A stretch of 60,920 nt of DNA, the filler included, from Basidioascus undulatus (lineage: Eukaryota): NCBI GenBank assembly GCA_000826855.1. It is 7 parts of 7 records of this genome, joined end to end, with 100 filler letters (N's around TTAATTAATTAA, not from the genome) between each part and the next. Parts side by side here need not be neighbours in the genome. Positions count along the whole stretch, not along the records: positions 8,735 to 17,365 come from JTLS01001362.1; 6 more parts are not named here. One strand, written 5' to 3'. Each line of letters begins with the position of its first letter. The first letter of the stretch is position 1. The position numbers and the translations under genes are program-made. A model generated the notes under the pieces. That model made no database searches. It worked only from the letters and a program-made list of their open reading frames with translations, and was not told where the DNA came from. Shown piece after piece: positions 1,016 through 58,005 of this stretch.

Positions 1016-2399
1016 GGCGTGGGAGTGGACGGCGAGAGCAGAGGGGTCGGTGAGGAGGACGAGGAAAGGAGAGCAAGAGAGAGCGCGCGGCGACACCGAG
1101 AAGACGTTCAAGTCCGCGGAGCAGCCTGGCTGGCCGGCCCGCCGCGCCCCACGCGCTGCCCATCTGCCCCCAGCCCGTCGGCAGCGCGCTCGATGGCTTA
1201 TCGACATCAATCGACTCTGATCGCGGCCTGTTTTTGTCCCGTTTCTTATGCTTGCAAACAATTTTCGATAGCTCTTTCACCGCACGATACGCCGTCCAAG
1301 TTAGCAGGCAGCATCCTGTATTGATCACGAGTGCTCGAAAAGCAACAGCAAAGTCTTACGAAGGCAGGTTGAAAATACTTCTAAGTACTGACGGCTGGTC
1401 GGCAGCAGGGCGGGGCAGCGAAATTTCGAGGAGTCTGACCGTCGGCCGGCTGCGTCCGCCGCCGTTGGGATGCCACACAAAGACTAGCTAAGGCTGCCTT
1501 CAGCTTCTTTGTTTCTTGACAAGGAACCTTTTCACACAACACACAGCACCGAGCTGGTCGAATGGCAGGCGTGAATACCAACCAGAGCAAGGTTGAAAAC
1601 CCATCTTTCAAGAGTGTGCTGAGATTTGTGACGGAGCTATTGAATTTGCCGGACCAAAGTGTGCAGTATCTCCCTTTCAACGACGTTCCTGGATGTATGA
1701 GTATATATCGAGGTACTGGTCAACCTGTGTAAAACAGTTGACTTAGAAGGGGACAGACTCGCGTAGCAGAGGCAACCGTACAGTCGCTCAGCAGGATGAG
1801 ACGTGCCTGAGGCGTTTTCAACAAGTCTTGCATTAGCTCTCTTAGAGAAGTTGAACAACACATGTAGCAAAATATGCAATTCTATTACATAATATCACAG
1901 CCATAAAGCGACCGACGATATACGACTGGTGGAGAGCGTGTTCGGCAGCAAGCTGGTAAAACTGGGTTTTGACCCCCGTTTACGCCCCACGCAAATTTCC
2001 TACTGCTGCCCCTTCACACCACAAACCTCCAAATTCGTGAAAAGCGCCCTGCACATGAAAAGCTTTTGCCATACCGGTTCACCATTATCAGGCAAGCCGC
2101 CATTAAATAGTAATCACAATCAAGCCACTCTCAGCTTGATGGCGCAGGGGAAGCGCGGTGGGCTCATAACCCACAGGTCTCTGGATCGAAACCAGATCAA
2201 GCTATTTTTTACTTGCTTTTTACTCTCCGGAGACCTCCGTCGAGTCTCCTGCAGAGATGGATGGCGGAGCGCAGCACTCTAGCATTGTGTATCATGCACT
2301 AAGTGAGGGAACCAAGTACACAGATAAGGGGATGAGATATTGGGCCAGGAACTTGGCAGCCGGGACGGAAACAAGTAGTTATTCGGTGAGAGAACTTGA

Positions 2400-3900
2400 A
2401 GGGAGAGACATTAAGAAAGACCATCCTTGGGTTGATTGCACAGGCATTCATGAAACAAATCAGCCTTCAAGCTGCTGTATTGATGTCATGGCATTTGCGT
2501 GCTCTACAATCAGCACCAACTGAGGATAAACAAATAAAAAGCACAGCATGCTCTTGTGTCAAACACCCGTACCTGGTTCTGCAGCAGTTGCGGGCTGTCA
2601 CAGGGACATGCTTCAGGCCTTCCCTCCAGAGTGCCCAGTACAAGGCTGGCCCAGCCTTCCTGCTTGCAGTCATTCTCTACCTTTCGCACTTGAGGGGAGT
2701 GGGCTGACATGGTCGCGCTGCAGATTCTGATTCCCCTGTGGAGGAGAGACCAGGTACAGTGGTTGTGGGTAAAGAAATTGGAAGTCAGGCCTGTACATTG
2801 GAAGAGGTAACATACTGAACACGAGGATGCATGTTTCATGGTTTCAAGCCACTGACTTAAGCTTCTTAATTTCACAAACAAAGAGCGACCCAGGAGATAC
2901 CTGGAAAACAAATCTTTCCCAACATGGTCAGAAATGATCCTTGGCATTGTAAGAGTAACTGTCACCCTTCCAGAAACTTTACTTCAAATACATGCATGGC
3001 TGCAGGTTAAAGTACAGTTTCAAAGAATATTGGACATTGTTCATTCCCTGTCCTGTCTTTTGCACAAGCACCCCAGTCTTCTCCAAGCTGGCTGGCAGTT
3101 CTTCCACCTTTCCATCCTTCCAAGCCCTTAATCATGCATGGCTCTACAAAACGAGTTCTTACCCTTAGAGTAACAGAGAATAGAAAGGTGCTGCAATTCA
3201 TGGTGAGATGTAGCAAAACCCGGTTGGGTGGGTGTAAGTGCAATGTGCAAAGGTGGGAGGAGGAAAGATAATGAAAAGAGGCTGCAGGAAGGGGACTAGA
3301 GAGGCAGGCAGAGTTAGGTGACTGGGAGTTTGCAGGAGATGTGTTCAGCCTGATGCTACTTGAGAACACGTAATAAGAAGGGTGTGGCATGCACAGGCTG
3401 TCCTAGCTACCAACCTGAGTGCATCAGGGACCAACCCCTTCCCTTCAACTCCATAATTGCATCCAGGCTCTGCGGATTTGCATTCCTTCCCACTAAAAAC
3501 ATGCTCTGTCTCCACACCCACATTCCCATGGGCACTATATCAAATGCAATGAAGTTTCATGCAAGACAGTGAGGCGGTTGAATGCAAGGTGAAGAGAGTT
3601 AAAGAGGAAGCTGTCACGGGGCAGTGTCCAGTCGGTCTGTGAAGGTATAGAGCAACAAAAGGAGAAAATGACAGATTGAATAAACTTGGACGGGTAGATC
3701 TTGTTGCCCGTCAGCCTCTGTGTACAGTCTCAAACGGGGTGCAGAGTGCTGAGCAACGTGCTGAGTGACGCAGCCTGGCACCGATTGCTCCTTCTTTCTC
3801 CCTGGATCCGATGAGGCTATGTTCACTCTAAAGTCAACCCATGTTGTACTCGATACAAACTCAGTGCATTAATTGCAACAGTTCAAAATTGGTTCGTTCC
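2400..3900. repeat. CpG-depleted, TG/CA-rich tract; probable decayed (methylated) repeat or transposon
   Basis: CG dinucleotides are visibly rare and TG/CA abundant compared with the CpG-rich genes nearby. Only short, stop-riddled ORFs are present and no family is recognised. Boundaries are approximate. Confidence 0.35.
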
Positions 3901-3958
3901 TGAACACAGTCCCAGTGTCTCCTTCCTGAACACACATCAGGGTTCCAGGTGGGAGTTT

Positions 3959-5438
3959 AGGAAGCGTTCCGGGGTTTAGAAACCTGTCGTGACTTTCGAA
4001 AGCTTTCCCAAGCATTCTTTTCTTGAGGTCGAAACTTTTTAAGCCTTTTGAATGATCTGCTGCGGGACTCTAAAGGTTTGTAAACTTGTTCTCTGCTTTC
4101 CTATCCATGCGATACTTGGCAGCTTGCGAACGAGCATGGGCGGCCCACGTACGTTCAAATATTTAAAGGGGAGGGAAAGGGATGGCCGATATAGTCTTGC
4201 GGCAGACCTCACCCAGGCAATCATACACTCGACAGTAATGGATTTGCCGAAGGTACAGGCCTAGTTTCCCTTGCGGTCACTAAGGAAACAATCCATCCAA
4301 GTACGGTGTAAAGGGAACTGCGAGCGTGCGCGGGAAGGCCATCGCTGCCGCTGCCCGTTATTACCGATATAGTACTTGCTTTGATTTGTCGACTTGCATG
4401 TACACGAAAGACAAATTCTGCTTCTTTCGGTTCCTTGTTTTCATGTCCTGGTGTAGGCAGCGCTGGAGGAGAATGCCCATCTCAACGTCATCTCCGTGTC
4501 TTGTCCGCTGCTGCTGCATATATATATCTCTTCCCGCTCGCCTCCCCTTTCGCCACTCTCTCTCTTGTCACCCTGTTACCTTCGTCATTAGAGTCCAAAG
4601 GTAGCGGCTGCTCAAGTCCACCTCTTCCCATGCTGGGTGAGCCCCAACCTGCCTCACCTGATGAGAGTCGAGTGTGGCGGCCCTTGACCAAAGCTCGCAG
4701 GTCTCGCACCTTCACCCAGCCAACGTTTGGAAGGTGCGCACTCAAACTATAGAGACGAGGGGTGGGTGAGGATGAGGGGATTTAAGTCCTGTAAATCACA
4801 TTCTCATGCTCGAGAAGTGGGGAAGAGTGAGTGAGTGCATCCCCATGGGCGGGCGGGCACGAGCTTTCAAGGGTGACCAATTGAACTGACTTTCCCCTTC
4901 CTGCATCCAGTCACAAGGTCACGCAACCGCTTACCTGTAAGCTTGAGCGTTGTCATTCTTATCTCATACAGGACTGATTTTGAAGTGGTTGCATAGGTTG
5001 CCACCTGAGATGGAATGATTGTCGTGGATGGTATTGTTGGGCCAGACTTGGAGTCGAGATTGCTGTGTCGCGCAAACGGTGTTTCACATCTGTAATATAT
5101 GTTCTGATGCATTAATTTGAATGAAGCATGAGCGTTGTGGCGTACAAACAGCGCCAGCAGGATACCGGGACAGTGTTATGGGCGAGATTCAGTGCACACA
5201 TACCCCCAAACCTTCCAAAGGTTGTGCTTGCTTTGGAAAGGATTCAGAACTCCATCCAAAGGCTTCTAATCCCTGGCCTAGAAGTTTCGTATCCTGCTGC
5301 CCAAGTTGCAAAACTTCAGATCAAGTCCGGAAAAAGGGCGGACATGTGCGGAAAGCATCGGTAAGCTTTCGAACCCCCGGAGCGTCGTTTGCTTTCCCGG
5401 GTTTCCAAAGGTTTCTAAACCTTCCGAATACGCCTCCT
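3959..5438. mobile_element. Region bounded by diverged long inverted repeats (possible non-autonomous TIR/foldback element)
   Basis: Colinear inverted blocks: GGTTTAGAAACCT 3973-3985 / AGGTTTCTAAACC 5409-5421; TTCGAAAGCTT 3995-4005 / AAGCTTTCGAA 5363-5373; CGAAACTT 4030-4037 / AAGTTTCG 5282-5289; AAGCCTTT 4041-4048 / AAAGGCTT 5258-5265. Confidence 0.45.
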
Positions 5439-6262
5439 GGTTTCACTGATGCAGGTGACGGTTTTCCTCCTTGCGACCCAATAGGCTCTCACCTGCCACC
5501 ACCCACTACCACTCTACCATGAACCCAATCTCCACTAGCGACACAGCCTCTTGCGAGAAAAAAGTCCCTCTCCGCATCCGAAAGTGTGCGAAGAAAGGTT
5601 GAATGCATGAGCCAAGGTAAAGCCGAAAGAGAAAGACTGATAATGCCTAAATCACCGAAAGGAAAGATTCCGTTACCCGCGTAACGAGTGCGCAAACCGC
5701 ATCCCCAAGCCGATTCAGGGGAATCGGAATTACACAAAACTTGACCTCATATGATCCAGGTCGCCGTTCACAAGAAACAGCGTTCAGAGCAAAGTTCGCT
5801 CTACACTGTAGAGGTAGAGTGCCCTGTCGAATTGCCTAGGGTGGACTCGTCAACGGACCCAGGTACAAAATGCCGGATTTACGTATTGTTGATTATGTAC
5901 GTTCGGGTCTTTGCGGGTCCGTGGCGTCCGTGGCGCACACTTCGGCAACTTGGCTGGCCTCTTGCCTCGACGCTCACCTTCGCGCATTTTTCCTGTTCTG
6001 CACCATGCACATATTCTCCTGGCCCTAAATCTTGTATATAATCTGTAGAACCGAGATCGAACGCAAGTAAATTTATTGTTTCAGGTTAGCCGCAAGCGGC
6101 GAAGCGACTACCAAGTTCCGCTGCCAGTACTACATGGAGCAAAGGCCCATGGCGCTGTACAACAAGGAGCCCAATCAGACACTGATAGACTGATGCGAAA
6201 GAACAATAAGAAGGGAGAAGGGAGACCTACCTGGAAAACGTCCCACGCCTCTTCCATGCATC

Positions 6263-6293
6263 GTCAGGTTAGCCACGTTGGGGCTAACCTGAC
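6263..6293. repeat. Perfect 12-bp hairpin (GTCAGGTTAGCC-7nt-GGCTAACCTGAC)
   Basis: Read directly from the sequence. The same arm recurs at 6081-6091 and at 30166-30177 on another contig. Confidence 0.7.
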
Positions 6294-7265
6294 AACCGCG
6301 AAATGCACCAAGATGCACCGGTGCAAGGCTGTTGATTGTCCGCAGAGTATACTAATCTGCATATAGATTTGTTTGAATCTGGACTGGACATATATTACCA
6401 CCATAGTCCTCATGCTCCACCGCCAGTACATACAGCGCGAAGGACCAGGTGCGTCAACTGTAAGGAGTCCTGCCCTGCATTGTAAGGTGTTGAGGAGGCA
6501 CAGTATTAATGGAAACAAGGGAGACCTGTCTGGCAAAATACGATCCGTCTTCCATACATTGTCATGTGAAAAGCAGGAATCGGCTGCGCGGGTCATTTTG
6601 AACTTGAGGGAGAATAAAGGGCGGGCCACATCCATGAGTCCCTTTGTACTTCTGGAACTGATTTATAAAAAGACTGGAACGGTGGTTGGTCTGGCAAGTG
6701 CGATGACCTGAACTCTGTGTGCAAGACTTTCGAGGACGGTCGGCTTCAACTCTTGTTGTCGACACTCAACCTGTTCCAATGTATTCCAGGCCGCTTCTGT
6801 AATTCCCCGCATGCCTTTATTGACCCAAAAATTCCTCTAATATAGTGGCTGCTTGTGACATCTTCCAGTTGCAGCCACGCTCGTCGCGAGGGGTGCCAGG
6901 GGGTGGTGATGAGTCGCTCTCGCTCATTTCTCCCGCTCATTTCTACCGCTCAATACTTGCTTCAGGACACGTGGCTTATGTGGCAGACGGGTATAACATG
7001 CAGTTTCTCTCTGGAGAATCCTCTGATTGCTCATACAAGATCAACGAGATTTAAACGCTTCAGACTGCCCACATGCCCGTTTTCCCACGCTTCCTTGGCG
7101 ATTCACGGTGACGTGCAATGGAGGCTCGTTGCACGCCTGCTGCCCCTGTTGCTGCTCGACCGCCTGCATCCCTCCTCGCATCCTCAGCTCTTCACTCCTA
7201 GGCCTGCATATCTACAGAACGCCCAGCACCTCATCTCCGACCTAATTCAAGAAACAACGAGAGCC

Positions 7266-8634
7266 ATGGCCAGCGCGCCCTCGTCCGCGTCGCTCGTACA
7301 GTCCGCGTACCTTGACGAGCAGTCGGCTAAGACGAGGGGGAAGGCAATTCCGTGGGAGGTGAGTGGGCGGCGAGACCAACAGACAGGGTATAGGGTGTGC
7401 AGGAAGGCCTTTCGGCGAATAGCATGAGGGTTAGGGCGGGCGGATGTGGGCCGATCGAGCTGCTGCTGTCCGGGCGAGGTGGTGTCCCATCTCCTCAAGC
7501 CTCGCCGCCTTGGGCACCATCAATCGCACTCACACCCAGCGCACTGAACTGCTGAAACTCATCGCTGACTCCCCTTCCTCGCCTCCGCGCGACCACAGGG
7601 CTACCAGCGCGCGAACCTGCTCACGCCGGAAGAAGTGTCGCTCATCAAGCGCGTCGACCGCCAGCCGCGAGCGAAGGTCGAGCAGCTCTACGCGTCCACG
7701 GGCGAGGTGGAGCAGTACGCGCGCCTGTACCTCACCCTCCTCAGCAAGCTTGTCAAGGTCGACACGCTCCAGAGCGTGCTCGTCTTACTCGACGATCTGG
7801 TGGATGGTGCGTTGAGTGGGAAGGAGCGGAGGTGTTGGAAGGGGAGGAGCTGCGTGGCTCACGAGATGAGGGGGTGGGTGGGGATGAAATAGACAACCCT
7901 GAAAGGCTCAAGCTCCTCCTCGAATGGAGCAGGGTCGAACCGTCCTATCCCTGGGGTCCCCTCATCAAGTGCGTCCTTTCCCTCTCGCTCACCCCAGCAT
8001 CCCGCAGCCCCCTCACCCAGTCCCTTTTCCACCAGGGCGCTCGAGACGCCCGACGAGTTCACACAGCTCAAGTCCCTCCGTCTTCTCACGCTCCTGCTAA
8101 CGACCGACGGACTTCCCTCCCTGTCCGACCCTCTCCCGCCGCACATCCAGCAGCCCCTCGTGCGGTACACGACCGACCTCCTCTCCTCCCACTCCATCTC
8201 CCCCGGCGCAAAAGACACCGCGCTCTCCCTCCTCGCGGCGCTGCTCTCGCGCGCGGGCCTCCGGCGCCCGTTCTACGACGCGGGTGCACCCGCCCCGCTC
8301 GTCGCGCTCCTGAAGGAGGAGAAGCAGAACCCGCAGACGCTGTATACCGTTGCGTATGCCCTGTGGCTGTTTACGTTTGATCGTGAGATCGCAAGGGACG
8401 TGGATGGGTGAGTGGGTGCTGCAGAGAGCGGACGCGAGGTCGGGGGGAAGCTGATGAGGATTGGGGGAGCAGGAAGTACCATGTCATCCCCTTGCTCACG
8501 GAGGTGGTCAAGTCCGCGGTGAAGGAGAAGGTTGTCCGCGTCAGCATCGCAACGTTCCGGGTCCGTCTCCCTCCTCGCTCCCTCCCTTTTGCGCGTCTTC
8601 CTACACAGGGCAACTCTTGGTGCTCAGGTCAAAT
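7266..8634 (+). CDS. VMA13: V-type H+-ATPase V1 subunit H (3'-truncated at contig end)
   Basis: Exons 7266-7358, 7599-7806, 7893-7968, 8036-8407 and 8473-8560 splice in frame. Motifs: AIPWE/GYQRANLLTPEEVSLIKRVD, NPQTLYTVAYALWLFTFD, IPLLTEVVKSAVKEKVVRVSIATFR. Confidence 0.93.
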
Positions 8635-8734
8635 NNNNNNNNNNNNNNNNNNNNNNNNNNNNNNNNNNNNNNNNNNNNTTAATTAATTAANNNNNNNNNN
8701 NNNNNNNNNNNNNNNNNNNNNNNNNNNNNNNNNN
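8635..8734. other. Artificial contig linker (N44-TTAATTAATTAA-N44)
   Basis: 100-bp spacer with stops in all six frames, repeated identically six times in the window. Confidence 0.99.
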
Positions 8735-8735
8735 G

Positions 8736-8808
8736 ATCAGGGGGTTGCAGGTTCGATCCCTGCGTCGGTCAAGGCCGGCTGGCTCAATGGTAGAGTATCT
8801 GACTACGA
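8736..8808 (+). tRNA. Putative circularly permuted tRNA-Arg(ACG), copy A: 3' half (38-73) at 8736-8771, 1-nt linker at 8772, 5' half (1-37) at 8773-8808
   Basis: Swapping the halves gives a complete cloverleaf: acceptor GGCCGGC/GTCGGTC+A73, D arm GCTC-AATGGTA-GAGT, anticodon stem TCTGA/TCAGG with loop CT-ACG-AA (anticodon 8805-8807), T arm GCAGG-TTCGATC-CCTGC. T6 follows immediately and no 3' half is seen downstream. Confidence 0.8.
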
Positions 8809-8809
8809 C

Positions 8810-8815
8810 TTTTTT
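8810..8815 (+). terminator. Pol III terminator (T6) directly after the 5' half of the permuted tRNA
   Basis: A37-C-TTTTTT; the same A-C-T6 ending follows the normal tRNA-Val at 57248-57255. Confidence 0.75.
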
Positions 8816-9749
8816 GCACCTTTTGCCCAACCACATCTTAGCACGGAATGACAACGGTCATTGTTGCGACATTACCGCTGCAGCCTGCTCTTTTCGCAAT
8901 TGCCATCTTTATTTCGCTTCGAGACTGCTAACACGCTGCAGCCTTGCCGACAGCGCCGCCACTGAATCTGTTCGCGCACGGCCGGTAAACATCCCTTTTC
9001 CTGCAGACTATTATCTTTGATTGCGTTCAATCCAAAGAACATCTAGGGCTGAGCACCATCAGGTGGAATGTCCAATTAGGTGTGTGCAGTCGGGCCGACA
9101 TGGGGACGATTCGAGATAGCAAGCGGAACAAATAATGCGTTCCGCTGTGAGTAGTAAGGCATAATGGAAGCTAAACGCTGTCACAAGTGATTCAATGAGA
9201 AATTAAAAATACTTTCGATCGTTTTGAAGGGTACTGGATGGCCGGCGGACGGTTCCAGTCTGGAGGCCCTGACCGACAGTTGCACATCACAGCTTATCTG
9301 CCCATAAAGCTCTGGGGATCATTTGCAGGTTACCTCAACGTGGGTGTACGCTTCACATCTCCTATACATCCTCAATTTGAGGTTTTCGGTAGTGGACGAT
9401 GTTGTTCGCTATGAGTATGTGGATGAGCGGGCGACCTTCACGAGCAAAGATTCACTGCTTCCGGTGACCGCTCCAAGGACCTACGTTGCCCTGCGGGGCA
9501 AGACGGCGGCCGCATGAAGCTACAAGCGTGCCAGTAAGGCCTTTATTACCTTACATGGGTTTTTTTGGTAGTTGGAAGATAGACGATAGATCAAGGATAA
9601 GCGAGCGTGCCTCATCACACGATTTGGCAGCTTTGCCTGAAAGGGGTGACTCTTCTTCAGCCAACTTTTCGTCCGACGATGATTCCCACAATATAAGCGA
9701 CCCCGTTGTGGCCTTTCTCTGATCTTCTTGCGCGGCTATCACCTTCTCG

Positions 9750-10756
9750 TTGGCATGGCGCCCCTTCCATGGACAGCGACAATCCACCTTGCGAACCTGT
9801 CCCTCATCCTCGGTCTCACAACGACTTCCCGCTTTTTCTGGCTATAGGTCTGGATACCCCTCACCCTACTTGTCCTCCTGCACATATATTCCCACGACAC
9901 CTACCCGTCGCGAACCCACTGGGTCGAATCCGTCCAGCGAGTACCGCCTTTGGCGTTGCCGTTCGCGCTGTCAAGCTGCTGCTCTGCAGCGAACTGCAGC
10001 GCGACTTTCGGCTCGACGGCCAGGACAAGCCGCCTTCGGGCTTCTTCGGGATTTTACTCTGGGCCTTCCAGATTTTGCCAACTCAGCAAGGCATTGGCTG
10101 GATCTGGCACGCCAAGAACACGCCTCCCTCACTGACGTCGTCGCGTCCGGTCCGGCCGGTCTTCCTCTTCGGTGAGTGCAGCTGCATCGCTCTTGTTGCA
10201 CTCAGCATTTCCTCGCAGGCCGACTGTCTGTCTATGTGGGGTGTATTCTCCAGCATGCACACGATTTTGGAAAACGTTGGCATCAGTGCCTCCGTCTGTG
10301 AGTGTGTGCCAGTTCTTATCGACTGGGGTAGCCGATGCGCTCTAGACAGCCATTCACGATATTTCCCCGTTACATCCTTGGCTTTTCAGGACTCAAGCCT
10401 CAAACAAGCATATCGGCGGCTTTCCTCCTCTCGGCCATTGTAAGGGCTGTCTTCAAACCACCAACCTTCGGCCTGCTGACATTCTTCGACAGTTCCACGC
10501 CGCCCATTCGTACGCAACGTCGTCCGGCAAGCCGTTCAACGGCACTGTCCTTTTCTTTCTTGCTCATCGTGTTGGATTTTTGCTGGAGGATGTCGTGGAC
10601 ATTTCCCGCCAGCCAGCATGGGTCGGCTACCTTTGGGTCTTTTCCTGGTTCAGCATCATTGGGCCGCTGTGGTTTAGCGACATGGTGAACAGCAGCTTCT
10701 ATGACAAGGTGGAGGGTCTGGTACCCGTCTCCATAGTTTCTAAAATTTTCAATTAG
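9750..10756 (+). pseudogene. Membrane-bound O-acyltransferase (MBOAT_2 / wax-synthase-like), probably frameshifted
   Basis: Motifs QGIGWIWHAK, F-GKRWHQCLR (reached only by a frameshift after MWGVFSSMHTI), AFLLSAI/FHAAH (catalytic His, across an intron starting at 10440) and FFLAHRVGFLLEDVV...GYLWVFSWFSIIGPLW. Stop at 10754-10756. N-terminal hydrophobic segments lie in different frames. Confidence 0.7.
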
Positions 10757-11999
10757 ATGTATTGTATATGGAAAGGATCTCCTCGTGTAAACTGCAGTTC
10801 ACCAGCTACGTGTGAATTTGCAAACACTTCAGTAGCCATATCTACCTTCCATTCACTGATGCAATCAGCGAGAAAATTTCGTCGTTCTTCTTTACAATCT
10901 GCACCAGGAGGCCACCCCTCACCCTCGTTTGGGGAGAGAACAGGTTGTCCGGGTACCTTGAACTCACCTGTAGGGCTCGCAGAAGGTATCTGGGGCCCTT
11001 GAAAAGTTTGTGCGACTGATTGATGACATTCCCAAGGTCCTTGGAGACCCGCTATAAGATGGAACAGCTGTAAGCTGGATGCCTTATGGCGGCCGGATTC
11101 GAGGTTGAGCATCGGCATCAACTACAGGCCCAATTCAGTGTACGGCAACCGGTAATATTCTGATCAGATCCAAACTGATAACACCCATACTTGCGGTGTA
11201 AGCAATGGGTAGATACCACATTAACGCCATTGCCGCTTTGGCAGTCTCTAAAGCCCAGGTCACCGCGCAACCTTTGGCCTTCATTTGGCTCAGAGCGCCT
11301 CAAAAGTTCAACATAAGAGAAGATGCATGGTTTCCAAGCCTATCACAAGTCCTGCACCCCAGACCCCACCGCCCGTGGTGGAACAATACCGTATCGCAAA
11401 TCATAAGCACATGAAGAACATTGACCCGCCGAAAGGATCCTGAAGTAAGATCCCCTTCTGCACGAGCAGTAGAGCCAGCTTCGTATGGCCCAAATCTCCT
11501 CTCGTGCATCGTCTCAAGATCTGCGAAGCTGAACTTCTGTAGCTGAACTCGGAGGCGCCTGCGCGTGAGGGTCTGGGAGAATTGCGTAGCTGCCCGAATG
11601 CTCCGACATGTCGTAATTACTGAACGTGAGCTTGATCTCGCCCAAAGCAGAGTGGACCAGGCCTTTGCGAAATCGAGCAGGGGGCCCGATGTCAGACAGG
11701 CTTGGCGTCTCTAGCTTTGGGCATAGCTGGCCGAGGCCCGGTAGGTAGGTCGATTGTGCGTTCAAGCTCTACTCGAACAGGTTGAGCTGCTTCAGCTCGG
11801 ATCGAATGCTGATCAGTAAGGCCGTTGCCGAGAAGCAGGCGCTGGGTAAATTCGCGCCGTGCAGGACGAAGTTGAGCGAAATCAATGCAGGGATACGCTA
11901 TTGTGAAAGGCAACACGCGAAGCTGCCGGCAGAGGCTCAATTTGCGATCCAGTACAAGCGCTGGAGACGAGGCAAGTTCAAGCTGGGGAGCCGATCTGT

Positions 12000-12760
12000 G
12001 TCCGGATCATTGTTTGACCCGTTGAGGGTCAAGCGAGGCAGCTCCCACATGGCATGGCGATCCCGTTGATGTAAAAGTCGTGGTTTTTGGTGTGGACCAT
12101 TGGGGTGAAGAGCTCGAGCGGCATCTTGTGCGCGGCCTTGTACCCGTGGAGAGCTGAGGAAACAGTGTGCGCGGTATCGGAGGGATAGTATTCGAGCGTA
12201 GACGCGATATGGGATTTGCAAGCTCCTGCACCCAATAGCACTTTGGGTTGGTCTGCCTTCCAAATTGTGTGTTCTCATTCCTCACCTGAGAGAAGAGCTT
12301 CTTGACATCCACCATATAGTAGACGTTCCCGATGATGCCGACTTGTCAAAGGGGAGTTGCCCCCAGCCTGAACTCTGTCTGCAGCCGACGCCGGTATGCG
12401 CGTACCTAAGGACCCCAACACCTATAAGATGTGACCAGAATGCAGATAACTCAGTACGAGGCACACTCACACCTTCTTAATAGACAGCCAGTTCTTGATA
12501 CCCAGCTGCTCGATGACCCACGACAATGTTTTCCGAGCGGACAGCGACAGCCGTGGCTTTGGGAGAGACATAAGGATATCGGCCAGGAGAGACTTTGGTG
12601 TGAAGGTAAGATATAGCGAATAGCAACTCAGTGAAGTGCAAACATACTTCGCAAGAAGGGTATGGGTAGCAGCGGTCGGCAAAGCCAAGTCCTAGCCCAG
12701 ATCGTCTCGATAGTCGTGACGCAGATTGAGAATCACTGCGAATACAGAAATACAATGCGC
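12000..12760 (-). mobile_element. Degenerate fragment of a basidiomycete transposase-like protein family
   Basis: Broken frames give YPYPSCE/SLLADILMSLPKPRLS...WVIEQLGIKNW, then QELANPIS, LEYYPSDT and LFTPMVHTKNHDFYI. These resemble the ELANP/FYPED/TPMV/DFYI motifs of a repetitive family common in rust and agaric genomes. Frameshifts and stops are present; superfamily is uncertain. Confidence 0.45.
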
Positions 12761-13705
12761 AGAAAATCATGCGCATTAATCCATGCAGTTGAAGGTACCA
12801 TACACGAGTCACAACCCGAACCTTCATCCCCACCCTCCGCACCCTCTCAGCCCTCGCTCACCAGGCCGACATGGGTTTGAACATTCCTATCTGCTCGATA
12901 CATTTTCACTTAGTTTTCCTGGGTGAAATGCATGTCGAATGCCGTGGCAGGCACCTGCATGAAGAAGGTGAGCGTCACAAGGACCGAAATCATCTTGCTG
13001 CAACGTCCTTCAACAAGGCCAAACAACATGCCCTGCCTGCCCTTGCGCACCAGGGACGTCGAGTGTTGCTGTCTTTCGAGCGGAAAGGGAATCTGTTTAC
13101 CTGTTTCTGTTTACCTGTTACATTTATACTACCCAGTATTTCCTCTAATTCTATAAACTGAGGGCCGCTACCGCAAGCGAATCCATCGGTCCCATCCACA
13201 CCGTCCGACGGCCTTGCTCTTCGTTGGAGGGATGCAAGGCTAGGCAAGGCGTCGCAAGTCATACATCCTGTGCACTCCTCGTTGGCTTTTAAGAAGTTAA
13301 TTATAATACCTTAGGTTATTCTCCAGCTCGCGTGCCCATGTCAGTGTGTAGAACCGACTTCTGTTCGGACAGCTAATGCCGCGACTTCGAGGCGCGAGTT
13401 CAAACGGAGCAAGCCTGAAGCAGGCAGTGCCTCTACTAATAGATATGGAAATTATGAAGCAGTCTTGTCGTTCCGCTGGGGACAAGACTGCCCAGGTCTG
13501 GAGTCGGAGAGACTCTAGTTTGGCGGCACGAGTGTGTGTGTTTGTGTGTGTGTGTTTGAAAGAGGAACAGTGACGGGTCGGTGTCCGAAAAGGCAAATCG
13601 ACGCGGACTCAAGCTGATCGTCCTCCCTTTCTGCCACCATCATCTCTTCCGTCCTCAGTCATTACCAAATAGGCTCTGACTTGTCATCGGCTATACTATT
13701 CGACC

Positions 13706-14686
13706 ATGGATCTCCGCCTTGCCAACGAGACCCTCCGAAACATCTTCGAAGTGCTCCACGACGACGACCAGGTCGGGGATAACGCGGACCTCAAAGCAGT
13801 CCGCCTTAACGAGGCGGCAATTTATTCCTTGTCGTGTTTCGGGATCGCTGCCGACAGAAATGGGTGTACAGGATGTCAGCACACCTGCCTTTTATCGCAC
13901 AGTCCGTCTACGGACACGCGAATCGATCATTGCTCTGCACGATTGTCTTATCGACCTGAGCATCCGCGGAGAGCCTCCCGGATCTCATATCCGTCGGCTC
14001 ATCTTTCCAGACGCAGACCTTAGCGCCGGTCTCATCGACAGTCATATACACGTTTCAAGCATTCTCGCTCACCCAATTTCGCTTCACGTGGTCCTGCCGC
14101 GCTTTATGCGCTGGTTCAGCACGTTCACTCAACCCTCACATCGTTCACGATCTCCGTCGGCTCGCCCGATGGTCGAGTCTTCGATCTACTGTCGAAACTG
14201 TCCTCTCTCAAATACCTGGATCTCACGCACGAGCAAAGGAGCGAATCCACGACCTTTCCTGCGTCCGCCGCTCCTCCTCTGATTCTTCCGCATCTCGAAG
14301 CATTTCGCTGTCTTGCGACACATACACCCACGCAGGGCTTTCTCGACACGCTCGCGCGGGCGCACTTCCCTTCCGTCCTCCAGGTCGACCTGTGTCTACT
14401 GAAGCTTCGTGACCCCGAGGGTATTCTGTCATTCATGAGAAGGCATGGTGACACGATAGAACAGCTCACGCTGCAACTCTATCCATTAGCGGCCATCAAT
14501 ACGGCCCTATCTGCTGTTCGCCGTTTGGCACTTCATGGGCTTCTTCTGCACGCATTCGCCAACTTGCTCTCCACAGGGCAGCTACCGCGAGTGGACCTGC
14601 ATGCTCCTCGGCACCGGGGGCAGCTCCATGATGGGAGCGAACAGGGGCCCCGCCATAGTCCCCCGCAAGCGGCTATTCGCGACTAA
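13706..14686 (+). pseudogene. F-box/RNI-like hypothetical protein, frameshifted
   Basis: MDLRLANETLRNIFEVL (F-box-like start). TPAFYRTVRLRTRESIIALHDCL...PGSHIRRLIF lies in a second frame and LRR-like fragments in further frames. Confidence 0.45.
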
Positions 14687-17365
14687 GGACCAGGCTCGCG
14701 AGGCCTTCTGCTTCAGCATGCGACTGGTGACCGGGGATAGCCCCGACGCGTACGTCCCATGGGAGCCTTACGAACCCTTCTTTACGATCGTGGCACCCTG
14801 TGCCAAAGCGGCGGGAAACGCTTCAGATCTAATGGGGCATGACAGACGCTCCCTTTCATACCGCGATTATGCTCGCACACCTTCGCGTTTTTGTGCAGGA
14901 TTCAGTGCACACGGTCGTGCGTCTCGAAATCACAAACCGTGCGAGCGAGGAGGACCATTCCGGGTTTCTTCATCCGTCGCATGCAAGCATAGGACGGAGA
15001 GTCGGGACACGCAGGGCTCGCGACGGCCTGGGAGACGCATCTGGAGGATCAGAGCATCAGGTGGGAACAGCTATGCCCTGCATTGGTGTAATTGCAGTGC
15101 ATCCGTATCTCACGTAACGCTGATGCGGCGCTGTCTGCTTTCTCCCTTGATCGACAGCAAGACTACATCCTTCGGCCCTCAACCATGTTTAATTTCCAGC
15201 GGTTTGGTACCTCAAGCGACTTCGAGCGCCTTTCGCAGGACCACCGATAGTACCAGCGCTGCCACACCCGGCGGCCCGGGACGACACGCCAGATCGCGGC
15301 TGTGTGTACCCAACTGCGCAAGTGAAGCTGGGTCCAGCTCGGGATATACAGCGAGGGGAACAGGATGCCGCATTCATTCGTCTGGGGAGAGCTCGAAAAT
15401 GGAGGTCAAGTGAGGATGTGGTGGATGCATCCTCCGGCGGAGATGGAATTGCCCGGGCCTCAATACGGAGACACTGTGAGCGATGATGGGAAGTATGGGG
15501 CGGAGTTTGGTTCGTGGTGGGGTTCATTGAAGTGGGACATCCATTTTTTCGCGTTTGCGGATGCATATCTATATGGGTCATCAGCTGTGCCTGTGCTGAA
15601 AGTAACGGTCCCCAACCAACCCTTTGGCGACCTCGATTCAAAAGGCCCGCACCGCTGATCACCACTCTCGATAAGACCCAATGAAAATAATCCGTGGACA
15701 ATTCTTAGGTGTTCTACACAGGCAGGTTCCTGGTGTGCATTGTGCGGCGAGCCCGTCGATAGTCACGCTGCTGTCGCACGCGTGCCGGGTTGTCCGTTTG
15801 GGCGGTGACCGTATGATTCGGCGGAACTACAGAATCAACAACCACATTAGCAAGAGACCTAATGGAGTGTTCTGAGGTTTCTTTCTTTTTGGTTTCTAAC
15901 GCTTGGTGCAAAACCGAGGTTTGTCGGCGGCGGGGCGAGCGATCCTGAGGCGGAACTTCGTCGCGAAGTCCGAACTCGCCCTTCAGCGCGGGCGTTCCTT
16001 GATGATGGGCGAGGAAAAGCACAAGTTAATGCTTCAGCTTTTCCTCCTTACACCATTCAAATGGAATGCCCCAGATCCAGCTACGTTGTCCACTACGCAG
16101 ATGAGCACCAGGCCCGGCTGGGCAACGTTCGCCTCTCGCTGTCTTGTGATGCCTGAACTATCCCTGACAAGTCCGAGAAACTTTTACGAGACTCTTTGAT
16201 CAACAGGTTACAACGTAGACCGTCCCTCGCACGCAAGGCAGCTTGCTCGTCCTCCACTGCAGTACTGCTAAACTTCATAGTCCCGGCAAGCGGAAATTAA
16301 CAATGAGCCTATGTGGTCTCTCCAGCCGCTCGGCCTAAAGGCAGAGCATGGACTAATTCACCTCGTGCCTGTAATTGATCAAGATCCTTTACCACTGCGC
16401 GGCTTCTTCGCCCGGTAGCGCGACCCCCATTCCTGATGAGCCTCCAGACTATCGAAGCCGATGCGTCCGCAAGGGCCCACAGCGAGCTGCATACCAGAAG
16501 ATGTGCTTGATTTGATTCAGAGGAATGGACAACGTTGAGGGGGATAGTGAGGTGTGAGTCGGTATCGAGTCTCCAGCGCTTGCGTGGGGAAGCAGAAACT
16601 TGCAGGTGGAGCTCTAACCGAACTTGGGGTTTCTCCAGTTTCTGTTTCTGCCCGTCCTCTAGCAGCCCACCATTCACCGTATTGTAGCTGACTGTGAAGT
16701 CCACAGTCTGCGCTCCGCGCCTGCGACACGAGTCCTGCCGGACTCTGAGCTTTCCGATGTGCTCTCGAAAGGGTAAGGAGGCACCTGCTCTCTCTTGTCC
16801 ACTCCACTCGACCAGATCCGACTCTGATTCCAAACTACTGTCCATCTCCGGCATCCCTCTGAGCGTGAGCGGGCTCGCGCTCTTGCATCGGCACTGCTGT
16901 AGTTCGCCCGTCACCCCAACGAGGGCAGGTCGCTCGACCGTCGAATCGAGCAGGATGATGAGAATCGCATGTAATGCGGAGATATCAAAATGCATATGTA
17001 TGGCGTTGATGTAGGCTTGTGGGAGTTGGTATGCGTGTTGGGAGGGGAGGGCGTGTATGGTCGAATGTGTCTATCGATGTGTGCGAGTCTAGAGTCTATG
17101 TGCGATACGAGCGTACGAAGAATAAAATAGTGTTCTATGGTCTATGTCTAAGTGGTATGGTATAAAAGTGTCTAGTCTACGTGCGAGGGTACGCAACTGC
17201 AACGGAACGGAAACGAAACCCAGCATGGAAAGCGACGAAAGTGTCCTCATCCCCCAACCGCTACTGGACGAGCCCCCTCTCCCTCCCCATCCCCTCCCCC
17301 CATCCTCCCCCTCCCCCTCTCCCCCAGCCGCAGTACGCTTCTGGCGGGAGGGGTGGCTCGGCGAA

Positions 17366-26890: not shown

Positions 26891-27401
26891 ATGAACTCAA
26901 TCGACCCCTCCTGCAACGACCTGAAGCATCGGTACGACGTGCGTCCTTGTGCCCGGCCTGCGTCGCATTCCTCCTCCGCTTGCTCCTCATACTCCCACCT
27001 CCGTCTTCCCTGCTGGCCGCGTCCGCCTAGTAGCAATGTTTCAACACCTGGTTCGAGTCCTACCTGAACCCCTCTTCCGCCCCGCGGACACCGCAAGAGA
27101 CGCACGCCAAGGCGGACGAGTATGAGCGGAGCTGCGGGGAGCTGTTTAGGGAGTACACGGAGTGCGTGAAGGTGGGTCTTTTCCTCCTCCCTCCCCCCAC
27201 CTCTCGTACCCCTGGTCCTTGAGGAAAGACGAGACTAAAGGGAGAGGGAGGGGACAGCGGGCTATAAAGTCCAAAGAGGGCTTGGAGGAGCTCATCGACA
27301 ACGCGTGGAGCGAACCGCCGTTCGCCGGGTTCGCGTCTGGCGATGGCTGCGAGGCGGACGCGGGAGGAGAAGGGGAGGCAGGGAAGGGCGGGAAACGATG
27401 A
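26891..27401 (+). CDS. MDM35: Mitochondrial intermembrane twin-CX9C protein Mdm35/TRIAP1
   Basis: Exons 26891-26938, 27034-27171 and 27258-27401 encode MNSIDPSCNDLKHRYD/QCFNTWFESYL...CGELFREYTECVK/RAIKSKEGLEELID. Confidence 0.88.
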
Positions 27402-52324: not shown

Positions 52325-52388
52325 GATACTCTACCATTGAGCCAGCCGGCCGTGACCGACGCAGGGATCGAACCTGCAACCCCCTGAT
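52325..52388 (-). tRNA. Putative circularly permuted tRNA-Arg(ACG), copy B: 3' half (38-73) at 52388-52353, 1-nt linker at 52352, 5' half (1-28, cut by contig end) at 52351-52325
   Basis: The reverse complement of 52325-52389 is identical to 8735-8799 except the linker base (C vs A). The upstream sequence contains no 5' half. The anticodon is inferred from copy A. Confidence 0.75.
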
Positions 52389-52399
52389 CTCGACTACCA

Positions 52400-52412
52400 C
52401 TAGCTTGCGCCA
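52400..52412 (-). promoter_or_regulatory. A-box-like element (TGGCGCAAGCTAG) in the leader of the permuted tRNA
   Basis: Resembles the Pol III A box (TRGCnnA...G) and starts about 38 nt upstream of the B box GGTTCGATCC (52374-52365), in the normal A-then-B order. Confidence 0.45.
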
Positions 52413-52880
52413 GGTTGTAATCGTTTGTGTTTTATCTTCATCTCGAGAAAGATTTTACCAAAATCATGTCACTGAAGGAAGTCGCAGTGCTGTGTGCTGT
52501 TACCTTTACACAATGCACGGCAACTCACGTTTACGGGTTGGTTGAAAGGTTTGCACCACAGCTAAGATATTCGTACGTTCAAGTTGTTCTTGCAGCGTCG
52601 CAGCTACTTCTTTCGGAGATTTCAACCCACAGCTCCTCCTACCCTGTTGTTTCCCCTCGGTCAACGTCTGTTTTTATCCACCACGGCCCAGGCCTACGTT
52701 TTGGGAACGCAGCAGCCACACCTAGCGCGGCCCATTCCTCGCTCGCTCATCCGGTTCTGCACTCACCTCGCCTCGCCTCGTCTCGCGTCCTTCCCCTTTC
52801 CTTTTTCCCACTAACGTCGTTACTTTCTCCCCTCGCATCTCTCACCACCCGCTTCTCACGTCGACATAGCTACTCCCGGG

Positions 52881-57166: not shown

Positions 57167-57248
57167 AGTTGCGTGTTCTAATGGTTATGATTTCTCTTTC
57201 ACAATTTGGAGACAGAGAAGGTTCCCGGTTCGATCCCGGGCGCGACTA
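57167..57248 (+). tRNA. tRNA-Val(CAC) with a 9-nt intron (57204-57212)
   Basis: Acceptor AGTTGCG/CGCGACT+A, D loop AATGGTTA, anticodon stem TCTCT/AGAGA with CAC at 57200-57202, intron ATTTGGAGA at 37/38, T arm CCCGG-TTCGATC-CCGGG, T6 terminator at 57250-57255. Confidence 0.9.
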
Positions 57249-58005
57249 CTTTTTTCCAGAAAACGCATGATCAATGCAGCATTGACATACATAATTCCGT
57301 ACCCTACCCCGTGTTGGGTCCTCAGCCTGTGTTGGCCTGTGGGGTGCTGTTGTCCGTGATTCATTTGCGTCGGTCCCTATGCAGAGGGCAAACAAAAGAG
57401 AGAACGGCACAATGTGTTGCAAGGACAAAAGTTGCTTGAACCGTGAATCGAAAACGGGGCGGGTCGAGATGAAATGGCAACACCCAGGTTACCACTACCC
57501 CACCCAAGCTTGTTGTAGTTCAACCTAAAAATTAATAACTGACGTACTGATGTACACCAATATCCTCGATCCCGCCTTCAGGACGTCTGTGGTCATCGCA
57601 ACGCATGGGCGCCAGAATATTCACCGCACACGGCGATTTATTGTTGGTTTAGAAGTGCCGGATCACCCGCATTGAGTGGGCTTTGTGGTCGGGGCCGCGC
57701 CAGCCTTCTCTGTGGCTTTCAACCACGACGTCTTTTATGTGTACTATGGCTGAAGAATGCGGTTCTTTGGTTCTATTGAAAGATTTTCAAGCGAGGGTTT
57801 GTTTCCAGCAAAGGTTAGCAGCCCGATGTCCAACGAACTAACGCTGCGATGCGTCGCAAGCTCGCGGGTGATTCCATGGACGTTCCGCACACTCAACGCG
57901 TCCAGCTCCTCCTAACTCCTCCAAGCTCCTAGTCCAGCTCCTCGTCTAGGCGCTCTTTTCCAGCTTCCTCCTCTCTCCGCCAGCCTCTCCTCCCTCAGCC
58001 TCAAA

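Follow-up and report, generated by a model that had tools for sequence, protein, structure and literature searches.

Circularly permuted tRNA-Arg(ACG) units form a dispersed family in a basidiomycete-like fungus and may be working genes

In the genome of a basidiomycete-like fungus the two halves of a tRNA-Arg(ACG) are encoded in reversed order on one strand, the 3' half being followed by a single base, the 5' half, a C and a run of T residues, and this layout recurs at many loci. As judged from the sequence, we tentatively propose, at slightly less than an even chance, that the element belongs to a dispersed family of about 25-30 working type II permuted tRNA-Arg(ACG) genes. An amplified, non-functional tRNA-derived repeat is the most serious rival explanation.

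The window, by which the whole stretch of DNA analyzed here is meant (60,920 nucleotides), consists of seven contigs sorted by size (8634 to 8596 bases) and joined through six artificial linkers, all identical, that are each made up of an N run, TTAATTAATTAA and a second N run. The N run that precedes the element in the initial annotation had to be corrected, as it is one of these six linkers and not genome sequence; DNA to the left of position 8735 is therefore unrelated to the element.

8635..8734, no strand: artificial linker between contig 1 and contig 2, non-genomic

The sole similarity among the seven contigs is the overlap between two copies of the element, copy A at the start of contig 2 and copy B at the start of contig 7 (65 bases, 64/65 identical). 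Reading frames in the window match the eukaryotic families VPS11/PEP5, V-ATPase subunit H, Sin1 and TM7S3. The closest relatives of the VPS11 fragment share 41-47% identity with it, and 114 of the 120 matches listed are named; these we take to be Basidiomycota throughout, and two of the species were confirmed as such by taxonomy look-up. With Basidiomycota proteins as the best relatives of this fragment, the fungal origin assigned initially is supported, and the host is most likely a basidiomycete outside the well-sampled Agaricomycotina.

Copy A reads G, A38-A73, one base, G1-A37, C and T6, and is followed by about 8.5 kb of unique DNA. Its parts are:

8735, plus strand: last leader base, G(-1), which is also the first base of contig 2
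8736..8771, plus strand: 3' half of tRNA-Arg(ACG), A38-A73, 36 bases
8750-8760, plus strand: B box GGTTCGATCCC in the T arm of the 3' half
8772, plus strand: one-base intervening sequence (spacer) between A73 and G1, an A
8773..8808, plus strand: 5' half, G1-A37, 36 bases
8780-8792, plus strand: A box in the D arm of the 5' half
8805-8807, plus strand: anticodon ACG in the 5' half
8809..8815, plus strand: one-base trailer C(+1) at 8809 and T6 at 8810-8815, Pol III terminator-like

In order, the 3' half supplies A38, the 3' side of the anticodon stem, the variable loop and the T arm, then the 3' side of the acceptor stem with discriminator A73. The 5' half carries the 5' side of the acceptor stem, followed by the D arm, the 5' side of the anticodon stem and positions 32-37 of its loop. 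A T run stands immediately 3' of the 5' half, and none occurs within the permuted unit or the spacer. Direct reading of 8736-8815 bore out the order of parts described initially, with the break at the canonical position 37/38. The span had been given as 8735-8815, of which the first base has to be removed: 8735 is the end of the leader and lies outside the tRNA. In both copies this base before A38 is a G, where an ordinary gene would have A37.

When the two halves were sliced and joined in a script, ARAGORN returned a tRNA-Arg(acg) of 72 nt in which all four stems are paired, in agreement with the cloverleaf that had been predicted on rejoining. Four of the stem pairs are G-T wobbles, each of which could be a C-to-T change from a perfectly paired ancestor, and the D-loop GG, U33 and the GGTTCGATCC T-loop are retained. 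The DNA of copy A as written gave no tRNA call by ARAGORN or by Rfam at the gathering threshold, just as the initial annotation had anticipated for standard scanners; the 3' half matches positions 36-71 of the Rfam tRNA model with 16.9 bits. Over the whole window, the only tRNA obtained from ARAGORN and Rfam (gathering threshold) was tRNA-Met (2133-2204). A 29-base word of the 3' half occurs twice in the window and the 36-base 5' half once, compared to 0 occurrences of either in 100 shuffles, so that the presence of the halves is not due to chance. Beyond the anticodon, no second 3' half was found in 8.6 kb of contig 2, which confirms what had been stated for this copy.

To place the element in the genome, contigs from three public runs (X1, X2 and X3) were compared with positions 8735-8934. 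X1 and X2 stem from two studies and provide contigs of about 35 Mb each, and the assembly may have been built from one or the other. X3 was obtained from the sample of X2 and comprises 15.7 Mb in 36,764 short contigs; it contains almost no contig 2 words, is labelled 'DNA?' and might be RNA. The depth of the unique flank was 19.8 in X1 and 44.4 in X2, and the short contigs that cross the spacer had depths of 175 and 298 in X1 and of 473 and 650 in X2, there being two main spacer classes per run. Spacer-crossing depth divided by unique-flank depth yields about 24-25 copies, on which both runs agree. Overall the family is put at roughly 25-30 copies, a high number for a single isoacceptor when a basidiomycete has a genome of about 35 Mb. 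Depth summed over the element (1465-4916 in X1, 3686-15273 in X2) overcounts, as neighbouring short contigs overlap. The spacer-crossing short contigs start exactly 30 bases to the left of the spacer, which we infer to be the effect of 31-letter words with the spacer as the variable site.

In X1, 44 contigs matched, 10 of them only in part, with one diverging before 8741 and nine behind 8813-8822. The corresponding figures for X2 were 49 matched contigs and 12 partial ones, and among the rows listed one diverges before 8741 and ten behind 8813-8817. Besides contig 2 there are at least 9-12 distinct downstream flanks, every one of which starts after C and T4-T8, and C(+1) is present at every downstream flank seen in X1 and X2. 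A full copy (8735-8815) lies within a 4.2-kb contig of X1 and an 18.5-kb contig of X2; this copy is decayed, with six differences including a spacer G and changes at G1 and G2. In another family copy the 3' strand of the anticodon stem is replaced. Since the layout recurs at many loci in independent X1 and X2 contigs, a one-off rearrangement or misassembly is ruled out. The initial annotation had assumed one or two loci, which was wrong, the X1 and X2 contigs revealing a dispersed family that includes decayed members. A conventional A37-A38 joint (8808 to 8736) was not listed in X1 or X2, a gap that is uninformative because a 60-base junction contig offers 30 bases per side.

Copy B occupies the start of contig 7; on the minus strand, which encodes it, 8.5 kb of unique DNA runs straight into A38:

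52325..52351, minus strand: 5' half as far as standard position 28 (27 bases from G1), ended by the contig end
52352, minus strand: one-base spacer, a C on this strand
52353..52388, minus strand: 3' half, A38-A73, identical to that of copy A
52389..52395, minus strand: leader -7 to -1, complementary to loop nucleotides 32-37 and the trailer, intron-like
52394..52413, minus strand: vestigial upstream 5' half (-25 to -6), A-box-like, aligning with 5'-half bases 7-21
52428..52436, minus strand: AT-rich GATAAAACA (-48 to -40 from A38), possible TFIIIB/TATA-like site, a weak lead only

All 63 tRNA positions that are shared by copies A and B are identical. Their sole difference is the spacer base, which is A in copy A, C in copy B and G in the decayed copy from the runs. 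It had been claimed that no 5' half precedes copy B, a claim that does not hold, because a decayed A-box-like remnant is located at 52413-52394. In this remnant 14 of 15 aligned positions match 5'-half bases 7-21 around a 5-base insertion, and a score as high was obtained in a fraction of 0.028 among 500 shuffled versions of the 60 leader bases nearest A38, which is marginal taken alone. Its decay consists of one substitution, the 5-base insertion and an acceptor strand that is unrecognisable, and it is situated about 40 bases 5' of the B box. AT-rich stretches are also present upstream of the conventional tRNAs of the window.

A 93-base contig of X3 contains a tandem variant with a period of 63 bases, in which the end of a 3' half, a spacer, 5'-half bases 1-21, TTGA and G are followed by a full 3' half, a spacer and again 5'-half bases 1-21. 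In the 11 bases before A38 this variant reads TGGTAG+TTGA+G and copy B reads TGGTAG+TCGA+G (10/11 identical). As the two leaders are so alike and that of X3 trails an intact 5'-half 1-21, the leader is conserved between copies. From these alignments it appears that the leader descends from an upstream 5' half minus positions 22-37, and a vestigial 5' half in this place points to an origin by tandem duplication. The remnant thereby fits a tandem-duplication-type scenario that was proposed for the origin of permuted tRNA genes (PMC3978253).

The junction of the permuted unit was compared with an intron and with the terminators of this genome's own conventional tRNA genes:

57167..57255, plus strand: conventional tRNA-Val(CAC) at 57167-57248, then C and T6
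57204-57212, plus strand, contig 7: 9-base intron of tRNA-Val(CAC) at 37/38
2133..2210, plus strand: conventional tRNA-Met(CAT) with T6 directly behind

The C and T run that ends the permuted copies is in the style of tRNA-Val (C and T6) and tRNA-Met (T6). Pairing at the junction was assessed on a composite of the copy B leader and the copy A loop and trailer, together with five leader bases of the X3 copy. In the canonical register of the tRNA-Val intron, positions -3 to -6 pair with nucleotides 32-35 at 4/4 positions, with three-base bulges at both cuts. In the same register of the permuted unit, leader positions -3 to -6 pair with 32-35 at 3/4 positions including 32:-3, and three-base bulges, GA/C and AG/A (the slash marking the cut), fall exactly at the two required cuts; of the outer pairs between the U trailer and leader positions -7 to -10, 3/4 are formed. 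A competing register of 7 bp pairs leader -7 to -1 with 32-33 and with 35 to +2, leaving A34 and A38 bulged. Position -4, which is C in copy B and T in the X3 copy and is their one leader difference, lies opposite G36 or U33, and no proposed pair is broken by it: it falls on the mismatch of the canonical register and retains a G-C or G-U pair in the competing one. The leader ends in T-C/T-G-A-G and the trailer begins with C-T-T-T, while the tRNA-Val intron starts with A-T-T-T and ends with G-G-A-G-A, and we infer from this comparison that the permuted unit's flanking sequences look like the borders of a short intron of the tRNA-Val kind. Folded without constraint, the composite precursor has its lowest energy as an extended hairpin (-34.8 kcal/mol), below that of the cloverleaf (-29.4 kcal/mol). 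A spacer of one base would close G1-C72 by a two-base loop, which ViennaRNA disallows.

If the copies are working genes, Pol III would initiate 5' of the 3' half, directed by the B box in that half together with the vestigial A box of the leader, and/or by the AT-rich site at -48 to -40. It would read the 3' half, the spacer and the 5' half and halt in the T run past A37-C. Anticodon-loop nucleotides 32-35 would be paired with the end of the leader and with the C-U trailer, which would mimic the ends of a tRNA intron, so that the tRNA splicing endonuclease could cut before A38 and after A37 and tRNA ligase could join A37 to A38. From the resulting 73-nt circle, RNase P and a 3' trimming activity would excise the single base between A73 and G1, and CCA would be added last. 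Alternatively, RNase P may act first, in which case a nicked two-piece complex would be formed instead of a circle. The ancestor is envisaged as a head-to-tail pair of intron-containing tRNA-Arg genes, of which the upstream gene would have lost positions 22-37 and the downstream gene its 3' half, the leader end and trailer start being the old intron ends.

The identity of the tRNA parts (63/63), next to a spacer that is free to vary and an adjoining remnant that has decayed, looks like constraint or selection on the tRNA parts. The weakest step of the proposed pathway is the opening of the acceptor end, as a spacer of one base and a two-base acceptor loop make the access of RNase P doubtful. 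Further, the B box is positioned upstream of the gene's own A box, an order unsuited to TFIIIC, and the vestigial A box that could remedy this is derived from one leader with a marginal statistic (0.028 of 500 shuffles). Copy number, decayed members and the tandem variant are typical of a proliferating repeat and count against working genes. The non-cloverleaf energy minimum and the four G-T wobble pairs also speak against them.

For a multi-copy family with decayed members and an upstream vestige, a mobile or selfish tRNA-derived repeat is a serious rival, and we regard it as a substantial possibility, if not a probable one. According to this explanation the copies are a non-functional amplified tRNA-derived repeat (a SINE-like retroposon, another selfish element or a pseudogene family) that arose once from a rearranged tRNA-Arg dimer; the near-identity of its members would reflect youth and not selection, and working tRNA-Arg(ACG) would be supplied by conventional genes elsewhere. 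The about 24-25 copies with unique flanks, the decayed members and the variant with a 63-base period are in line with this, as is the doubtful maturation through a one-base acceptor loop. The A-box-like leader followed by the B box has conventional order and spacing and could act as a self-contained Pol III unit, as the heads of SINEs do, and the copies end in T runs of variable length, as expected for retrocopies of Pol III transcripts. However, we know of no mechanism by which U-tailed Pol III transcripts are retroposed in fungi, and the unit has no poly(A), LINE-like tail, LTR-type TG...CA ends, PBS or PPT. A repeat also leaves unaccounted for that the sole difference between copies A and B concerns a base absent from the mature tRNA while the adjoining leader remnant is decayed, that C(+1) is retained in all flanks seen, and that the leader end mimics the genome's own tRNA intron. 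Some Basidiomycota are rich in mobile elements derived from tRNA (Helenus TRIMs, PMC10886601), but the tRNA-like part of Helenus is described as lying in conventional order inside LTRs, unlike the permuted element (PMC10886601).

It is improbable, in our estimation, that the copies encode a working small RNA without a decoding function, either a 5' tRNA half, set free by RNase P at G1 and consisting of G1-A37 and a C-U tail, or an RNA resembling a tRNA whose acceptor end is closed. If TFIIIC used the unit's own A box (8780-8792), the start would be placed near G1 and the stop about 40 bases on in the T run; the rule that relates the A box to the start by distance is established for yeast Pol III genes. 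In Rfam, both copies score highest against the permuted tRNA-like module of YrlA (RF02553), with 30.4 and 30.8 bits (E about 0.0003-0.0004 in 1.7-kb searches). These scores are far under the gathering score of 69, for which reason YrlA was rejected as an assignment; the YrlA family is bacterial, and the match reflects only the succession of T arm, closed acceptor stem and D arm. Nor does the match account for the intact anticodon stem-loop, the 3' strand of its stem and all tRNA invariants.

An assembly artefact, or an ordinary head-to-tail array of complete tRNA-Arg genes broken at a contig end, is very improbable and for practical purposes excluded by continuous contigs and independent assemblies: although both copies in the window touch contig ends and one X3 contig is a tandem, in contig 2 A37 is joined by way of C-T6 to 8.5 kb of unique sequence without a break, as is A38 to 8.5 kb of such sequence in contig 7, no second 3' or 5' half is present in contig 2 or contig 7, the X1 and X2 contigs repeat the junctions with 9-12 different flanks past the T run, T6 would stop Pol III within any supposed intron, and G, not A37, precedes A38 in both copies.

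Several other candidates were considered and rejected. A giant intron after A37 would be terminated at T6, and no 3' half follows within 8.5 kb. An LTR or Helenus-type element was dismissed as LTR ends and a PBS are missing, the 8.5 kb on either side contain neither another copy nor a repeat, and the halves are in permuted order, and the sequence cannot be read as a primer-binding site since it is in sense orientation and a complementary run extends over just 6-7 bases. Local alignment for a 3'-half remnant downstream of copy A was no better than shuffles (p 0.29-0.89), and a B-box-like word at 27050-27060 is without a T stem. The tail of a tRNA-derived SINE is not present either, the unit ending in C and a T run with no LINE-related or A-rich 3' tail; with regard to a SINE-type promoter, the gene's own boxes are reversed (B before A), and in copy B the decayed A-box-like leader stretch lies 40 bases upstream of the B box. 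A metagenome scan with a loose pattern retrieved 118 loci, all of them closely spaced prokaryotic tRNA genes that share just the anchors of the pattern and none matching the element beyond 26 bases, and exact scans for the junction gave 0 matches each in prokaryotic genome contigs and viral contigs.

In eukaryotes the codons CGT, CGC and CGA are read by tRNA-Arg(ACG) once A34 is deaminated to inosine-34. In five Pfam-supported reading frames of the window they make up 86 of 158 Arg codons, and a working source of tRNA-Arg(ACG) must therefore exist somewhere in the genome. ARAGORN and Rfam scans detected no conventional tRNA-Arg(ACG) within the window. That every working tRNA-Arg(ACG) gene of this fungus is circularly permuted, with no conventional copy left, seems rather unlikely on these data. 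In that case an essential tRNA would be made solely by cutting and rejoining at 37/38 and by reopening an acceptor end that is closed by one base. Since standard scanners miss all copies, an annotation of this genome would seem to lack tRNA-Arg(ACG).

Permuted tRNA genes are viewed as a rarity of a few algae with tiny genomes and one archaeon, where their transcription is TFIIIC-independent. Among the papers listed by full-text literature searches, of which those from 2015 onward were judged by title, none describes a fungal permuted tRNA gene. This is in accordance with the initial statement that no fungal case was known and with a 2026 review (PMC13578239), in whose account permuted tRNAs of eukaryotes are rare exceptions and only certain unicellular algae are named. 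Of the interpretation as a permuted gene in a fungus, the layout, the break at 37/38 and the host stood, and the part that had to be given up is that of one or two loci without an upstream 5' half. If the copies work, permuted tRNAs would for the first time be known from outside algae and archaea, in a new host kingdom, and for the first time as a multi-copy family; the spacer would be the shortest in eukaryotes, and the ancestral dimer would still be recognisable by its remnant. The pathway would then be within reach of the ordinary enzymes of opisthokonts (Sen endonuclease, Trl1-type ligase and RNase P), and the family would offer a tractable system for the reading by Pol III of a gene with its B box before its A box, as well as a caught-in-the-act case of the proposed tandem-duplication origin. 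If they are a selfish repeat instead, they would constitute a tRNA-derived element of a new kind, and would show how a match to half a tRNA at the end of a contig can be misleading.

In yeasts, dimeric tRNA genes are arranged head to tail with a very short spacer and co-transcribed by Pol III, as in tRNA-Arg/tRNA-Asp of budding yeast and tRNA-Ser/tRNA-Met of fission yeast. They are a plausible ancestor state of the fungal unit, although both of their units are complete, whereas the outer halves are missing or decayed here. YrlA (RF02553) shares the order of T arm, closed acceptor stem and D arm but, unlike the fungal unit, is bacterial and is without the halves of an anticodon stem-loop at its ends. 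SINEs and the Helenus TRIMs of Pucciniales and some Agaricomycetes likewise occur in Basidiomycota as tens to hundreds of dispersed tRNA-like copies that inflate or confuse tRNA counts (PMC10886601). Helenus is reported there to possess LTRs, PBS, PPT and 5-bp duplications, while the fungal unit measures about 80-110 bases, is permuted and ends in a T run.

The 34 permuted genes compiled in a 2014 review (PMC3978253) all come from unicellular algae and one archaeon. A one-base intervening sequence as in the fungal unit is listed there for the permuted tRNA-Tyr(GTA) of Thermofilum pendens (Chan, Cozen and Lowe 2011, via PMC3978253). This gene differs from the fungal unit in being archaeal and single-copy, with its break at 59/60 and an extra intron, and it encodes CCA and hence has a longer acceptor loop (PMC3978253). 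The closest resemblance in layout is to the type II permuted genes of Ostreococcus, Micromonas, the Bigelowiella nucleomorph and Cyanidioschyzon merolae (PMC3978253, citing Soma 2007 and Maruyama 2010), in which the 3' half is likewise upstream of the 5' half on one strand. Algal genes and fungal unit have in common the break exactly at 37/38, an unencoded CCA, a T stretch behind the 5' half, an intervening sequence without a terminator and a possible intron-like junction of leader and trailer. The Arg(ACG) isoacceptor is absent from the table of PMC3978253, and the intervening sequence is 1 base in the fungus in contrast to 5-74 in the eukaryotic cases of its Table 1. The algal genes are single copy and their hosts algae, whereas the fungal family numbers about 25-30 dispersed copies in an opisthokont. 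Unlike the algal type II genes, the fungal unit has a mismatch in its junction helix (3/4 pairs), and its vestigial upstream 5' half is still visible.

The 60,920-base stretch (1-60920) is a pseudo-molecule of seven contigs linked by N runs around TTAATTAATTAA; along it the contigs shrink from 8634 through 8631, 8619, 8617, 8616 and 8607 to at least 8596 bases. Adjacency over such a linker is without biological meaning. The linkers and the conventional tRNA genes were placed as follows.

Linkers and conventional tRNA genes in the window
8679, 17410, 26129, 34846, 43562, 52269: linkers, N runs around TTAATTAATTAA
2133-2210: tRNA-Met(CAT), directly followed by T6
57167-57255: tRNA-Val(CAC), interrupted at 37/38 by a 9-base intron; C and T6 come directly behind the gene

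The start of contig 2 (8735-8799), which carries copy A of the permuted tRNA-Arg(ACG) unit, and the reverse complement of contig 7 (52325-52389), which carries copy B, form a 65-base dovetail with one mismatch, located at the single-base spacer between A73 and G1. The two contig ends could represent either both sides of one locus, as two alleles or through an error, or two different members of the family. A 93-base contig of a public sequencing run (X3 record 17; the run being DNA or RNA), which aligned to 8735-8793, is built head-to-tail with a 63-base period, each repeat comprising 5'-half bases 1-21, TTGA, G, the 3' half and the spacer. It is a tandem variant of the permuted family without the anticodon arm.

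The conventional tRNA-Val(CAC), whose D stem harbors two non-standard pairs, was not called by ARAGORN in no-intron mode and was overlooked in a first Rfam run at the gathering threshold, while an E-value run detected it with 42.4 bits (gathering score 29). A weak Rfam match to mtPerm-5S at 10277-10385 was most likely due to chance: it scored 17.2 bits against a gathering score of 39, with an E-value of 6.5 when 1.7 kb was searched.

A VPS11/PEP5 gene at 43637-46417 is divided by short introns among at least three reading frames. Its best public relatives were all Agaricomycotina with only 41-47% identity, suggesting that the host is a basidiomycete whose lineage has few closely related sequenced members among the candidates scored. 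In tRNA-Met(CAT), T-loop position 54 is an A (GGATCGAAACC), a mark of eukaryotic initiator tRNA.
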